From the NCBI GenBank assembly GCA_964621005.1, contig CAZUIF010000010.1, forward strand, positions 43,368 through 107,367: a DNA stretch of 64,000 nucleotides, given 5' to 3'. This DNA comes from an uncultured Rikenella sp. (lineage in GTDB: Bacteria > Bacteroidota > Bacteroidia > Bacteroidales > VadinHA17). Shown in pieces: positions 17,305-53,974 of this stretch; positions within the stretch are counted from its first letter, which is position 1; each line of letters begins with the position of its first letter. A model generated the notes under the pieces. It did no database searches, was not told the origin of the DNA, and worked only from the letters and a program-made list of their open reading frames with translations. The translations under genes were made by a program, and so were the position numbers.

Positions 17305-18057
17305 TCAGATAAATATTTCCCGGGGATACCCGATTTCAGTAAGTGAGAGTCCGTGTGCAGGAGCAGACTGTCCGGCCAGACCGCGGTTCTTCCCCTGAAG
17401 GATTGCTTCAAAATCATTTACAGACAATTTTCCTCTTCCGGCCGGGATAAGTGTTCCCACCACCGCCCTCACCATATTCCTCAGAAACCTGTCAGCAGTA
17501 ATTGTAAAGATCAGCTTTTCCGCCTCCCGGTGCCACCGGGCATGCGTGACCCTGCAGATATTTGTCTTATTGCTGCCGTGAAGGCGGCTGAAACTGGTAA
17601 AATCGCTGTGTTTCAGCAATATTGCCGCGGCCTCGTTCATTTTTTCCATGTCGAGCTGCCAGTAAAGCAACCATGCGGTATCTGCACTGAACGGATCCTT
17701 TACACCGGTAACGGTATACCTGTATGTGCGGGAGAGTGCATCAAACCGGGCATTGGCCTCCGGTTTCACCTTTGCTATCCTGCTGACAGCGATGTCATCC
17801 GGCAATATCCCGTTGAGGTTGTACAGCAACTGGCTGTCACTGTCAAGATCACCGCGTACGGCATCAAAATGTGCGCAGAAGAATGAAGCATGCACGCCTG
17901 TGTCTGTCCGTCCCGCACCGGTCACTGCTGTTTGGGAGGCAAGTACCGTACTGAGTGCCTTTGTCAGCGCACCCTGAACAGTATGCTTGCCCGGCTGTAT
18001 CTGCCAGCCGTTGTATGCCGTGCCCCTGAAAGAGAGAAAAATGAAGTAGCGTGTCAT
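17305..18057 (-). CDS. truA: tRNA pseudouridine(38-40) synthase
   Basis: GWQIQP, GAGRTDTGVHA, FLRNMVR, APAHGL. Confidence 0.96.
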   Translation of the reverse strand: MTRYFIFLSFRGTAYNGWQIQPGKHTVQGALTKALSTVLASQTAVTGAGRTDTGVHASFFCAHFDAVRGDLDSDSQLLYNLNGILPDDIAVSRIAKVKPEANARFDALSRTYRYTVTGVKDPFSADTAWLLYWQLDMEKMNEAAAILLKHSDFTSFSRLHGSNKTNICRVTHARWHREAEKLIFTITADRFLRNMVRAVVGTLIPAGRGKLSVNDFEAILQGKNRGLAGQSAPAHGLSLTEIGYPREIFI

Positions 18058-49256: not shown

Positions 49257-49371
49257 CAGGCATTAGGCAGTAGGCATCAGGAAATAGGGAAGAGTGTTGA
49301 CATCATTCAGGCAGTGCCTGAATGAATTACAATAATTTCACCACTGCCTAATGCCTATTGCCTCTTGCCTA
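49257..49371. repeat. Heptamer-armed miniature element C
   Basis: CAGGCAT TAGGCAG TAGGCAT ... GAGTGTTGACA; 42 nt core with hairpin TCATTCAGGC/GCCTGAATGA; right arm ends GCCTA. Confidence 0.85.
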
Positions 49372-50604
49372 GACAGTAAGCTGTTCCCCTTCTGATTTTG
49401 CAATGATTACCGCACCGCAGGTGTCACCGTAAACATTGATGGCAGTGCGGAACATGTCCAGGATACGGTCTACTGCCAGTATCAGTCCGATACCTTCAAG
49501 CGGAAGCCCGACTGCATTCAGCACTACAGCCATCATTACCAGTCCTGCCATTGGGATGCCCGCGGATCCAATTGCTGCCAGCAAAGCTGTGAATATCACC
49601 ACCATCTGCTGACCGAACGTAAGATCAATACCGTAGGCCTGTGCTATAAACATCACCGCCACACACTCGTACAGGGCAGTGCCGTTCATATTTATCGTGG
49701 CCCCAAGGGGTATCGTGAAGCTGGTAATCTTGTTGGAGACCCCGTCTTTGCTCTCGACAGCTTCCATTGTAATTGGAAGGGTGGCATTGGAGGAAGACGT
49801 GGAAAATGCGGTCAGAATGACTGTCGACATGTTCTTCAGGTGCTTTATCGGGTTCGCCCTGCCAAGAAATTTTACAAGCAGGGGAAGAGTGATGAAACCC
49901 TGCACCAGTAGCCCCAGCAGCACTGTCAGGAAGTAGATCCCCATGCTGCTTATGATCTCACCGACCTGGTTACCGCTGTTGATCTGCTGCGAGAGGACTT
50001 TTGCAATTATGCTGAATACACCCAGGGGGGTGAACTTGATTACAAAGAGAGTTATCTTCATGATCACATCCAGGATGGAGTTGACCACATCAACAAGGAG
50101 AACGCGCGATTTCTCCCCGACCCGCGTTACAAAGAATCCTGCAAGTATTGCAAAGAAGATAATTGAAAGCATGTGACCTTCAGACATCGACCTTATGATG
50201 TTGACCGGGACGATGTTTATCAGAACCTGCCCGAAGCTTTCCTTGCCGGCTGAGATTTCCTCCACAGGCACCTGAAGTCCGAGATCTGCACCCACACCAG
50301 GTTTGATAAGCTGGACAAAAAAGAAACCGGTAATGATTGCAAGGAGAGTTGACAAAACATAATAACCCATTGTTTTAAGGCCGAGCCGGCCCAGGTTCTC
50401 GGCAGTTCCCACGCTGGCCACACCTGTCATGATTGAACAGAAAATCAGCGGAACAATCACCATGTTAAGGCCCCTCAGAAACACATCTCCCATCCAGTTC
50501 GTGTATTTGGTGAGATGAGGGAACAAATAGCCGAACAGGCCGCCAAGGGCAAGCATAATCAATATCTGCCAGTGAATTGCAAGGGAAAATTTCCTTTTTA
50601 CCAT
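49369..50604 (-). CDS. Dicarboxylate/amino acid:cation symporter (DAACS, GltP family)
   Basis: AFSTSSSNATLP, GATINMNGTALYE, AIGSAGIP, DRILDMFRT. Confidence 0.93.
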   Translation of the reverse strand: MVKRKFSLAIHWQILIMLALGGLFGYLFPHLTKYTNWMGDVFLRGLNMVIVPLIFCSIMTGVASVGTAENLGRLGLKTMGYYVLSTLLAIITGFFFVQLIKPGVGADLGLQVPVEEISAGKESFGQVLINIVPVNIIRSMSEGHMLSIIFFAILAGFFVTRVGEKSRVLLVDVVNSILDVIMKITLFVIKFTPLGVFSIIAKVLSQQINSGNQVGEIISSMGIYFLTVLLGLLVQGFITLPLLVKFLGRANPIKHLKNMSTVILTAFSTSSSNATLPITMEAVESKDGVSNKITSFTIPLGATINMNGTALYECVAVMFIAQAYGIDLTFGQQMVVIFTALLAAIGSAGIPMAGLVMMAVVLNAVGLPLEGIGLILAVDRILDMFRTAINVYGDTCGAVIIAKSEGEQLTV

Positions 50605-50841
50605 ACTTTATACGTTTGTCTTATGCAGGGCCTGAACCCCCATGAAATTACAGAGTCTGAAGATAATCAAAAGAATACTCGTGAAAGATGTTTTAAATTA
50701 TGTTTCCACGATTTGATTTTCATATGGAAGGGCAGGGCAGGAGGTAAAAAATCAATTCTCAGCGACTTCAGCAGAATACGGAAAAATAACCTGTCCGAAA
50801 TCATTGACACAACACCCACGAAGATTGAATCTGACTCTGCA

Positions 50842-51242
50842 TTACAGATGTAAACAATAAAACAAAGGTTAATTGCTCTATCCTTGTTTACGTACGTAAC
50901 CAAACTTTAATTACGAATGTAAATAATACATGCCTGAATAGCTGTGAGATATTAAATAACGTTATATCAATTAGTTATATGATTCAATTGAATTACAGGT
51001 AGCACTGTATTAATGCAAGAAGTCAAATTGCCTTTAGAATATTGGTTAATTAAACATTTAAAACGCTATTAATGAGTATTTAATACCTTCTAAACTCAAG
51101 TATCAATTCAATATATTGTGATGTTATTTAACGAATATCATTGCAGATAATGGTTGCCAATGTTTAATGCATGATTTACTGAATTACATATGTAAATAGA
51201 ATTACATGACATATGTAAATAAGACTATCATTACATTTGTAA
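50842..51242. promoter_or_regulatory. Array of six TTAC-N4-GTAA palindromes in an AT-rich intergenic region
   Basis: Copies at 50842, 50888, 50911, 51184, 51207 (TGAC variant) and 51231; the last contains the -7 element TACATTTG. Confidence 0.75.
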
Positions 51243-51257
51243 AAACAGTGTTTGCTT

Positions 51258-51713
51258 ATGAAAGACCGTATACTTGCCTTTCTTCAGAGCGAAAACAAGA
51301 GTTATGCTCAATTTGCAGATGAAATCGGGGTTCAGCCTTCGGGCATTTCCCATATACTGTCCGGAAGGAACAATCCAAGCCTGGATTTCGTGATTAAGAT
51401 GCTGCACCGCTATCCGTCGCTGTCAGCGGACTGGCTCCTTTTCGGAAAGGGTCCGATGTACAGATTTATATCCCAGCCTACCCTGTTTGACACTTCTGAA
51501 ACAGGAGCAGGCACGGAAGGTGAATTACCTGTTAAGGACCGGGAATTTACTGATAGTGATGTGATGTCACCGGCGGAAAACTTCAATCAACCGCAGGATT
51601 ATACTGAACAGACGCTGCCAGGGGTGTCCAACAGTGACTCCGGAGGTAGGAAAATTGAGCGCATAGTAATGTTTTATACGGACAAAACCTTTTCTGAGTA
51701 CAAACCTTCCTGA
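51258..51713 (+). CDS. XRE-family HTH protein with conserved-looking C-terminal motif
   Basis: FADEIGVQPSGISHILSGRNNPSLDF...WLLFGKG; C-terminal IERIVMFYTDKTF. Confidence 0.88.
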   Translation: MKDRILAFLQSENKSYAQFADEIGVQPSGISHILSGRNNPSLDFVIKMLHRYPSLSADWLLFGKGPMYRFISQPTLFDTSETGAGTEGELPVKDREFTDSDVMSPAENFNQPQDYTEQTLPGVSNSDSGGRKIERIVMFYTDKTFSEYKPS

Positions 51714-51756
51714 CGGAATCAGGCAAAATGTCTATTTTTGCAATCAAGGAGGGTAG

Positions 51757-52536
51757 ATGAAAAAACGGATTGAGGATCTTACTGTAATTGAGAACAGAAG
51801 GCTTGCAGAAAGCTTTTTTGTGATAAAGGTTTCTCCCCCGGGAGAGATGCCTGAGATTAATCCGGGACAGTTTGTACAGGCTCTCGTTACTGAGAGTCCT
51901 GCTACATTTCTTCGCCGGCCGCTGTCAGTACATGACGTTGATCGTGACCGGAACACCATATCCCTGCTGGTTCAGATTGCAGGTCCCGGCACTGAGCGCC
52001 TTTCGCGGCTGATCCCCGGAGAGAAGCTCAACCTGGTTTACCCCCTGGGCAACTCCTTCAGTCTCCCCTCCAAGGGTGAAAAAGTGTTGCTTACAGGCGG
52101 AGGATGCGGGATGGCGCCTCTCCTATACCTGGGAAGAAGGATCAGTGAATCAGGCGTTCAGCCTCATTTTGCCCTTGGCTTCCGGAATCGTTCCAGGATT
52201 TTGGACCATGACGATTTCAAAACTCTGGGGCCGGTTTGGCTATCCACGGAAGACGGATCCGAAGGACATAATGGCTTCGTAACCGATATCCCTGCATTCA
52301 GGGATCAATCATGGGACCGGATCTATTGCTGCGGTCCCGAACCGATGATGAAGGCCGTGGCAGCTGCATGCGCGAGGAGAGATATCTTCTGCGAGGTATC
52401 ACTTGAAAACCTGATGGCATGCGGACTTGGAATATGCCTATGCTGCATTGTGCCAACAACTTCAGGAAACCTGTGCTCCTGTACAGACGGACCGGTTTTT
52501 AATATAAAAGATCTCAAATGGCAGACCTCAGAATAA
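51757..52536 (+). CDS. pyrK: Dihydroorotate dehydrogenase electron transfer subunit
   Basis: [35 protein letters not shown]...C.DGPVF. Confidence 0.94.
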
Positions 52537-53432
52537 AGATCGGACCACTGGAATTCCGCAATCCGGTCATCCTTGCCTCCGGAACATGCGGCTACGGAGC
52601 TGAGCTGGAAGATTTCACGGACCTCTCAGAACTCGGTGGCATAATCGTAAAAGGCACTACTCTTGAACCCAGGGAAGGAAATCCCTACCCACGTATGGCA
52701 GAGACAGCATCCGGGATGCTGAATGCCGTCGGATTGCAAAACAAGGGTATCGACTATTTCGAGAAGAACATTTATCCTCATCTTGCTGAATATGATACAC
52801 ATGTGATTGTCAATGTAAACGGCAACACTATCGAGGACTACGTAGAGCTGTCTCGCCGGCTCGATGCTCTGGCAGCTATTCCGGCCATTGAGCTCAATAT
52901 CTCATGTCCGAATGTCAAGAAAGGGGGTATGATCTTCGGTACCAATCCGGCCTCAGCCCGCGAGGTTATTTCGGCTGTCCGGAAAGTTTATCACAAAACA
53001 CTCATTGTCAAACTCTCACCGAACGTGACTGATATCGTTGAGTTTGCCAGGATCTCTGAGGAGGAGGGTGCGGAGGCAGTCTCTCTTGTCAATACACTGC
53101 TTGGCATGGCCATTGATGCCAGGACCATGAAACCGAAGCTCTCCACTGTAACAGGCGGACTGTCTGGTCCGGCCATCAAGCCCGTGGCCCTCAGGATGGT
53201 ATGGCAGGTGGCAAGGGCAGTCAGGATTCCGGTTATCGGGCTGGGTGGAATTATGAATGCCGAGGATGCCATAGAGTTTATCCTCGCCGGGGCCACCGCG
53301 ATCCAGGCCGGAACAGTATCATTCATTGATCCCCGCGCCGGCGCATCGATAGTAAATGGGATCGAAAAATACCTTGTTGAAAAAGAATTCGACTCTGTCA
53401 GCAGAATTACAGGACTTATAAATAGGAATTGA
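52518..53432 (+). CDS. pyrD: Dihydroorotate dehydrogenase (NAD+), catalytic subunit
   Basis: [41 protein letters not shown]. Confidence 0.96.
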
Positions 53433-53503: not shown

Positions 53504-53974
53504 ATGACAGAAAATTTGCAAATTGACAATCTGGACAGAAAGATCCTGGACATCATAACCAAGAACGCAAGGATACCGTATCTCGAGGTAGCGCGTGACT
53601 GCAATGTTTCAGGAGCGGCAATCCATCAGAGGGTCCAGAGGCTGATCAGGATCGGTGTAATCAAGGGATCTGAATTCAAGGTTGATCCTATCATGGTAGG
53701 GTTCAGGACATGTGCGTATATAGGTCTTTATCTTGATAATCCGGGCAAATACAAGGAAGTGATTAACAGGCTCAAGGATATTCCTGAAGTAATTGAATGT
53801 CATTATACTACAGGCAACTACTCTCTCTTCATAAAAGTTTACACACGCGACAACGAGCATCTCCGCGAAGTGCTTACAGAGAAGATCCAGGCAATTCCCG
53901 GCGTGATGCGCACAGAGACACTTATATCGCTCGAGGAGTCGATAAGCAGGCAGATACCGGTGCTTTCAAAATAA
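53504..53974 (+). CDS. Lrp/AsnC family transcriptional regulator
   Basis: LDRKIL...NARIPY...HQRVQRL HTH; ECHYTTGNY effector domain. Confidence 0.93.
   Translation: MTENLQIDNLDRKILDIITKNARIPYLEVARDCNVSGAAIHQRVQRLIRIGVIKGSEFKVDPIMVGFRTCAYIGLYLDNPGKYKEVINRLKDIPEVIECHYTTGNYSLFIKVYTRDNEHLREVLTEKIQAIPGVMRTETLISLEESISRQIPVLSK

Follow-up and report, generated by a model that had tools for sequence, protein, structure and literature searches.

Our analysis revealed that a small XRE-family gene is preceded by two operator-like triplets of palindromes, which lie about 340 bp apart with an AT-rich stretch between them, and that this layout accompanies the gene in about 130 related loci. These observations suggest that the palindromes are operators of the XRE protein, which would repress its own promoter, probably through a DNA loop that involves conserved islands in the spacer. 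We give this reading as a whole a probability of roughly 0.6. Operator recognition and autoregulation appear to us more secure than the whole, and the loop less so.

Results

Palindromic sites upstream of the XRE gene

The intergenic region at 50605–51257 of the window (the whole 64-kb stretch of DNA that was analysed) separates the XRE gene on the plus strand (51258–51713) from a minus-strand sodium:dicarboxylate symporter gene (SDF; 49369–50604). A pattern search of the window located exact TTACNNNNGTAA palindromes (TTAC-N4-GTAA) in this region at 50842, 50888, 50911, 51184, and 51231. The window holds six exact copies against 0.36 expected, and none of 100 shuffled sequences reached six; the remaining copy, TTACACCGGTAA at 17700, lies away from the region and scores below 9 bits with the matrix described below. 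A sequence-only reading of this DNA had listed six TTAC-N4-GTAA sites here. Five of them are exact, while the site at 51207, TGACATATGTAA, begins with TGAC and carries one mismatch; it can alternatively be read as TTAC-N9-GTAA at 51202–51218. The spacings given in that reading, 46 and 23 bp in the first cluster and 23 and 24 bp in the second, were correct.

A 20-bp matrix derived from 510 related sites has the core TTACA-N2-TGTAA with A/T-rich flanks. At a cut-off of at least 9 bits it returned six matches in the 64-kb window, exactly the two triplets and no other sequence. The distal triplet consists of D1 (TTACAGATGTAA, 50842–50853, 18.9 bits), D2 (TTACGTACGTAA, 50888–50899, 11.9 bits), and D3 (TTACGAATGTAA, 50911–50922, 16.5 bits), all exact matches to the palindrome. 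The proximal triplet consists of O3 (TTACATATGTAA, 51184–51195, exact, 20.7 bits), O2 (51207–51218, the site with one mismatch, 10.9 bits), and O1 (TTACATTTGTAA, 51231–51242, exact). O1 includes TACATTTG at 51232–51239, which is a Bacteroidetes -7 box (TAnnTTTG) ending 18 nt before the XRE start codon at 51258, in agreement with the earlier proposal that the last site contains the -7 element of the XRE gene. O2 occupies the position expected of the -33 element.

The palindromes also left a trace in public sequence data. In one run (X17), which behaves like DNA and whose contigs break at the palindromes, a contig spans window positions 50841–51261, with its left end within 1–2 bases of D1 and its right end some 20 bases beyond O1. 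Repeated palindromes of this kind seem to break de Bruijn assemblies and could fragment the locus in metagenome-assembled genomes.

Conservation of the two-cluster layout

A scan with one genome per species gave 55 family loci from uncultured Bacteroidales labelled Rikenella or Rikenellaceae-like, with 51–86% identity in the best-matching segment of the XRE protein. A profile scan of metagenomes added 80 further loci, with protein identity of 40–61% and locus GC of 27–48%. The relatives found all come from uncultured organisms. About 130 loci keep the layout, even where protein identity falls to about 40%, and they do so across the full 27–48% range of locus GC. A motif search upstream of orthologs had been proposed in the sequence-only reading as a check, and the palindromes are indeed kept with the gene.

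Counted back from the ATG, the sites of nearly all 55 family loci begin at about 416, 370, and 347 bp (distal) and 74, 51, and 27 bp (proximal), and those of the metagenome loci at about 425, 390, and 356 bp and 75, 52, and 28 bp. Offsets from O1 were tallied in 115 loci, comprising 53 species-level genomes and 62 metagenome loci. The equivalent of O2 was found at -24 in 48/53 family and 35/62 metagenome loci, and that of O3 at -46/-47 in 46/53 and 54/62, respectively. The equivalent of D1 lies 388–390 bp upstream of O1 in 31 of the 53 family loci and 399–400 bp upstream in another 11, and that of D2 lies at -343/-344 (23 loci) or -353/-354 (11 loci); D3 has its equivalent at about -320 in part of the family. 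The distal peaks are thus at -343 and -389 in the window family and at -328, -362, and -397 in the metagenome set. The exact O1 12-mer starts 26–30 bp before the ATG in nearly all loci, and O1 overlaps the TAnnTTTG -7 box in all of them. Beyond the 800 bp upstream of the gene, sites numbered 0 in 272 kb of flanking sequence in the family and 5 in 309 kb in the metagenome set.

The two-cluster layout is also kept where the left neighbour, the SDF gene, has been lost, reversed, or replaced. Loci reached by protein look-up extend it further: in one distant clade (L057), the distal cluster lies about 550 bp upstream; three other distant loci (L138, L139, and L141) keep the layout with inter-cluster spacers of about 430–530 bp, and a fourth (L147) keeps it with one of about 200 bp. 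Homologues that lie still further out (L142 of Flagellimonas, L143, and L145) retain only degenerate TGTAA-type sites.

The distances themselves fall into groups. Within the family, the inter-cluster lengths form two classes about 10.5 bp apart (389 versus 399.5 and 343 versus 353.5), possibly the trace of one event. Spacings in the distal triplet are 46/23 bp in the window and 35/34 bp in more distant relatives, and these two groups are about 8 bp apart in their cluster-to-cluster distance. The groups therefore share no common helical phase, and a rule of one helical phase for the distances between clusters was rejected, with a resultant length of 0.17 at 10.5 bp; the values of 0.42–0.46 at 11–11.5 bp reflect only the built-in 23-bp spacing and shared ancestry.

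The XRE protein and its expression

The XRE gene encodes a protein of 151 amino acids, with a helix-turn-helix (HTH) domain in residues 1–70, a disordered linker, and a C-terminal beta-hairpin motif, ERIVMFYTDKTFSEYKP. Residues 8–60 matched HTH_3 (PF01381) with 36.5 bits against a cut-off of 23. A Pfam search found no domain beyond the HTH in this protein, and the S24 (LexA/CI-type) C-terminal domain is absent. An AlphaFold model built with a 54-sequence alignment showed a five-helix domain in residues 1–70 (pLDDT > 90), a disordered linker in residues 81–129 (pLDDT about 40), and a C-terminal beta-hairpin in residues 136–148 (pLDDT about 70). The hairpin coincides with the conserved motif (E/K)(K/R)I(V/I)xFY(S/T)DKTFxEYxP. 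Foldseek matched the model to 434 Cro/repressor, P22 c2, SinR, and HigA, with target TM scores of 0.75–0.85 to 2cro, 1pra, 3qq6, 3zkc, and 3jxb. PHROGs grouped the HTH with those of phage repressors, with modest scores, and a sequence search of solved structures gave marginal HTH matches only. In alignments of the relatives, the HTH residues S28, H32, G36, R37, N38, and P40 are invariant, in keeping with the invariant half-sites of the palindromes.

The XRE gene is expressed, since contigs of a metatranscriptome (X25) cover 51260–51679. X25 was the one true metatranscriptome with signal. One of the two contigs is a close match, and the other, about 90% identical, is probably from a relative. 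The neighbouring genes had no coverage, and in this sample the XRE gene was apparently expressed above pyrK.

Two further observations concern the protein family. Four loci (L054 at 1128–1726, L052, L053, and L055) have a split or truncated XRE reading frame between intact flanking genes; this could be true decay of the gene or an error of sequencing or polishing in its low-complexity linker. A representative search also showed proteins with four to six tandem copies of the same HTH subtype (P0121, 546 aa; P0130, 349 aa; and P0210), which share a ...SGRN.PS...W.L.G.G motif. These proteins are single-chain arrays and could bind several phased operators simultaneously.

The AT-rich spacer and its islands

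The two clusters flank an AT-rich spacer at 50923–51183, whose length is conserved. The AT-rich block is about 260 bp long, and GC content in 100-bp windows over 50900–51250 was 23–26%, compared with about 51% for the 64-kb window, which matches the earlier estimate of about 25%. Conservation within the spacer was assessed in a 54-sequence family alignment and a 46-sequence distant alignment, and four islands were recognized. Island 1 (TTATATCAATTAGTTATA, 50962–50979) consists of columns at least 90% conserved in the family alignment, and its TATATCA(A/G)T is retained in the distant alignment. Island 2 (TTTAGAA, 51033–51039) is conserved in both alignments, lies near the D1–O1 midpoint, and has an inverted partner, TTCTAAA, at 51088–51094; in 18/51 distant loci, TTTAGAAA occurs at -195 (sd 4) from O1. 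Island 3 (CTATTAATGAGTATTTAAT, 51066–51084) has columns conserved up to at least 90% in the family but is weaker in the distant set. Island 4 (TTCTAAACTCAAGTAT, 51088–51103) shows the strongest conservation of the spacer in both alignments. With these conserved islands, the spacer is more than a passive loop.

The consensus sequence of integration host factor (IHF) is WATCAANNNNTTR. Within island 1, TATCAATTAGTTA at 50965–50977 fits this consensus and is conserved in the family; the distant consensus, TATCAGTAATATA, is one position off. AA/TT dinucleotides in 102 non-redundant, mutually related spacers showed a periodicity peak at 10.5 bp (z 3.9 versus shuffles); only the periods of 10.5 and 11.0 bp exceeded the shuffled level, and 10.5 bp was the highest. 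Such a period is a signature of curved or wrapped DNA, but, as the sequences are related, it is suggestive only.

A structured RNA in the spacer was considered and rejected. The Rfam search gave no real match in the spacer, since raising the E-value to 1 returned only a chance snoRNA match of 18 bits, and the GC content of 25% also argues against it. A further conserved block, TCAATTCTCAGCGACT, lies outside the spacer at 50751–50766, roughly 150 bp ahead of the divergent SDF transporter gene. It was rejected as part of the module, since only loci whose SDF gene is on the minus strand have it, and it probably serves the transporter itself as a control or leader element.

Neighbouring dihydroorotate dehydrogenase genes

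Downstream of the XRE gene lie pyrK (51757–52536, plus strand) and pyrD (52518–53432, plus strand), which encode a class 1B dihydroorotate dehydrogenase (DHODH), and the pair is a conserved neighbour of the XRE gene, found downstream of it in about 130 loci. pyrK has a separate -7 box, TATTTTTG (51733–51740, plus strand), in the 43-bp gap between the XRE gene and pyrK, and a short hairpin, CCTGAcggaaTCAGG, precedes this box. A TAnnTTTG box was found within 80 nt upstream of the start of the next gene in 112/120 related loci. As the DHODH gene has a box of its own, co-transcription with the XRE gene is not required. The matrix found no palindrome near the pyrK promoter in the window, and none was seen in L147, which was also inspected; direct operator control of the DHODH gene is thus not evident.

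The adjacency of the two functions is more durable than the identity of the enzyme. In the clade with about 40% identity, the three loci examined (L138, L139, and L141) carry instead a quinone-dependent class 2 PyrD (480 bits to NF003652), and in L147 a pyrD–pyrK pair is convergent to the XRE gene. The adjacency is lost in the most distant homologues. It has outlasted the exchange of one enzyme class for another, a reversal of the enzyme genes, and turnover of all the other neighbours. The survival of the adjacency through the class change and the inversion suggests, from gene order, a functional tie between the XRE protein and DHODH beyond an operon.

Discussion

We infer that the XRE protein binds the palindromes, since gene and palindromes occur together in about 130 loci and in several gene contexts. 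A different protein, for example, an AsnC/Lrp-type regulator, could also be the binder. In the mechanism that we favor, XRE dimers on O1, where they would cover the -7 box, and on O2, at the expected -33 position, would block RNA polymerase, and the XRE gene would thereby repress its own promoter. O3 and the 23–24 bp spacing would add cooperativity between neighbouring dimers. The distal sites D1–D3, located 270–390 bp upstream, would be bridged to O1–O3 by protein–protein contacts, for which the conserved C-terminal beta-hairpin, carried on a flexible linker of 60–70 residues, is the probable element. This bridging would close a loop over the AT-rich, presumably intrinsically curved spacer, and the islands, one of them IHF-like, would probably bind an architectural protein that aids loop formation. 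The predicted outcome is tight, low-noise control of the repressor level. The conserved inter-cluster distance, the 10.5-bp periodicity of the spacers, and the two length classes of the family all bear on the loop, which we consider probable from these sequence features. All the comparative results fit the cooperative binding and looping by the XRE protein suggested in the sequence-only reading, which they support in part; the islands and the DHODH link did not figure in that reading. Several points count against the favored reading: the groups of relatives share no common helical phase, the islands make the spacer more than a passive loop, and both the periodicity and the length classes derive from sequences that are related, so they are not independent events.

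The spacer could instead be the main player of a composite region. A second factor, either global or pyrimidine-responsive, would act on the islands, and the palindromes would serve local autoregulation with no loop; a protein of the Lrp/AsnC or HU/IHF type would wrap the AT-rich DNA and set the expression of the XRE gene and perhaps of the DHODH gene. The fixed positions of all four islands, even in distant loci, fit this proposal, as does the link to pyrimidine genes in the neighbourhood, and the distal spacing of 34–35 bp in distant relatives resembles that of wrapped arrays. There is also a candidate binder of the islands, an AsnC/Lrp-family regulator encoded at 53504–53974 of the window, three genes downstream of the XRE gene, which is conserved in the window clade. 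This regulator is 88–99% identical across related loci and is the most conserved protein of the neighbourhood. However, the AsnC gene is absent from the examined flanking sequence of L138, L139, L141, and L147, where the layout persists. Furthermore, distal and proximal palindromes share the same sequence and the same degree of conservation, which is hard to explain without a shared protein, and the lack of a palindrome near the pyrK promoter also speaks against a composite region. On balance, we consider it unlikely.

A more ambitious proposal is that the XRE protein, the six operators, and the curved spacer with its islands together form a nucleoprotein switch of fixed geometry coupled to DHODH. 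We regard this as decidedly unlikely, even with the persistent adjacency of the two genes. One form that such coupling could take, by analogy with the trigger-enzyme arrangement of GlnR and TnrA, is a contact between the C-terminal hairpin and PyrD, which is only a guess.

A second promoter–operator unit in the distal cluster, in place of a looping partner and controlled by the same repressor in the manner of divergent phage immunity promoters, is improbable. It was considered since a site of the TTACATTTGTAA type is also a -7 box, and D1 could drive a leftward transcript here or a rightward one in relatives. In some 44 family loci the centre of D1 reads AA or GA and yields TACAT(T/C)TG on the minus strand; in many distant loci it reads TT or TC and yields a -7 box on the plus strand. 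Against this, inspection of the site and gene tables (with no formal tally) showed no apparent link between the orientation of D1 and the orientation or presence of the upstream gene, and on this ground D1 was rejected as the promoter of that gene. No conserved small open reading frame or Rfam RNA was found beside D1, and the X25 RNA contigs include none over the spacer or the left flank, although this last point is weak evidence.

An origin of replication, or a replication or segregation locus, with the palindromes as iterons and the spacer as an unwinding element, was the alternative offered in the sequence-only reading, and we reject it as very improbable on the DnaA boxes and GC skew of the 64-kb window and the skew of three distant loci, for all that the AT-rich block of about 260 bp, the 23-bp spacing common among iterons, the IHF-like site in the spacer, and the conservation of the region in one copy per recovered contig would suit it. 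No DnaA box (TTATCCACA-like) with one mismatch or fewer occurs in 50600–51260, as that reading had itself remarked of canonical boxes, and the window has 12 against 13.6 expected. GC skew keeps its sign across the locus, at +0.035 in the 13 kb on its left and +0.032 in the 12.7 kb on its right, and the cumulative skew climbs steadily without a turn at 51 kb; in L138, L139, and L141, the skew is likewise positive on both sides. Moreover, the sites are palindromes and not directly repeated iterons, and dnaA, dnaN, and rep were not found among the identified neighbours in any locus, which are housekeeping genes whose synteny is conserved. Flagellimonas has a complete genome of 3.94 Mb, and there the homologue, at 1.74 Mb, is preceded by a short region with degenerate sites only.

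The looped autorepression favored here invites comparison with lambda CI, whose operators OR1, OR2, and OR3 are spaced 23–24 bp centre to centre. The present system shares with it a repressor with a Cro/CI-type HTH fold, two clusters of three palindromic operators, neighbouring operators 23–24 bp apart, a promoter-proximal operator that overlaps the promoter of a repressor-controlled transcript, and a flexible linker to a separate self-association element, which is here a prediction. The lambda OL/OR-like architecture proposed in the sequence-only reading is upheld as regards the two clusters of three and their spacing, but the likeness does not extend to an S24 domain or a cro-like partner. 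Instead of an S24 peptidase-type domain, the protein has only a beta-hairpin of about 15 residues. There is no cro-like divergent partner or lytic promoter; inspection of the open reading frames of the region found no conserved small one beside the operators, and the left neighbour varies (SDF transporter, FKBP, and others). The repressed promoter would here be that of the XRE gene itself, the clusters are about 340 bp apart instead of 2.3 kb, and the spacer contains conserved islands. The locus is chromosomal and syntenic across an order, with no prophage genes among the identified neighbours. The XRE system is thus not a member of the lambda CI family, as it lacks the S24 domain, the cro partner, and prophage genes among the identified neighbours.

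By analogy, we infer that the system works like the looping multi-operator repressors of phages, such as lambda CI and 186 CI, and like bacterial repressors of the GalR/HU type. In coliphage 186, CI binds the pR operators and the flanking sites FL and FR about 300 bp away, and the DNA is wrapped on a CI wheel. Three clustered operators paired with distant sites a few hundred base pairs away are common to both systems, and the conserved distances imply a multimer of fixed geometry. In contrast to 186, the distant sites form a single cluster and lie on just one side, and the proteins were compared at the level of the HTH only. GalR forms a loop of 113 bp in the gal operon with the help of HU, and the P1 region of carAB is acted on by PepA, IHF, and PyrH. 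Here too, two operator regions are joined by a curved AT-rich segment with a candidate site for a bending protein, and carAB itself belongs to pyrimidine biosynthesis. The proteins of those systems belong to other families (LacI/GalR and PepA), there are six sites here instead of two, and the loop would be longer than that of gal.

GlnR and TnrA are small HTH regulators whose C-terminal tail contacts the glutamine synthetase encoded next door. They resemble the XRE protein in being small HTH proteins, in a conserved short C-terminal peptide, in the location of the gene beside that of a single metabolic enzyme, and in autoregulation through upstream operators, which is here predicted. Their HTH is of the MerR type and that of the present protein of the XRE type, and the likeness is an analogy only.

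A search of a paper library for the motif and for an XRE/dihydroorotate dehydrogenase pairing in Bacteroidetes returned nothing relevant, and protein sources name the XRE family only generically. Our analysis provides a precise operator, TTACA-N2-TGTAA, its overlap with the promoter, and a three-plus-three architecture whose distances are kept within a few bases across loci of very different GC content. The module would offer a clean natural system for the study of long-range cooperative repression outside phages, and a ready-made, tightly autoregulated promoter–operator cassette for Bacteroidales genetics. For pyrimidine regulation in this lineage, the adjacency to DHODH provides a lead that can be tested. 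The coupling to dihydroorotate dehydrogenase, if true, would make the module a pyrimidine-responsive regulator not described before in these Bacteroidales lineages.
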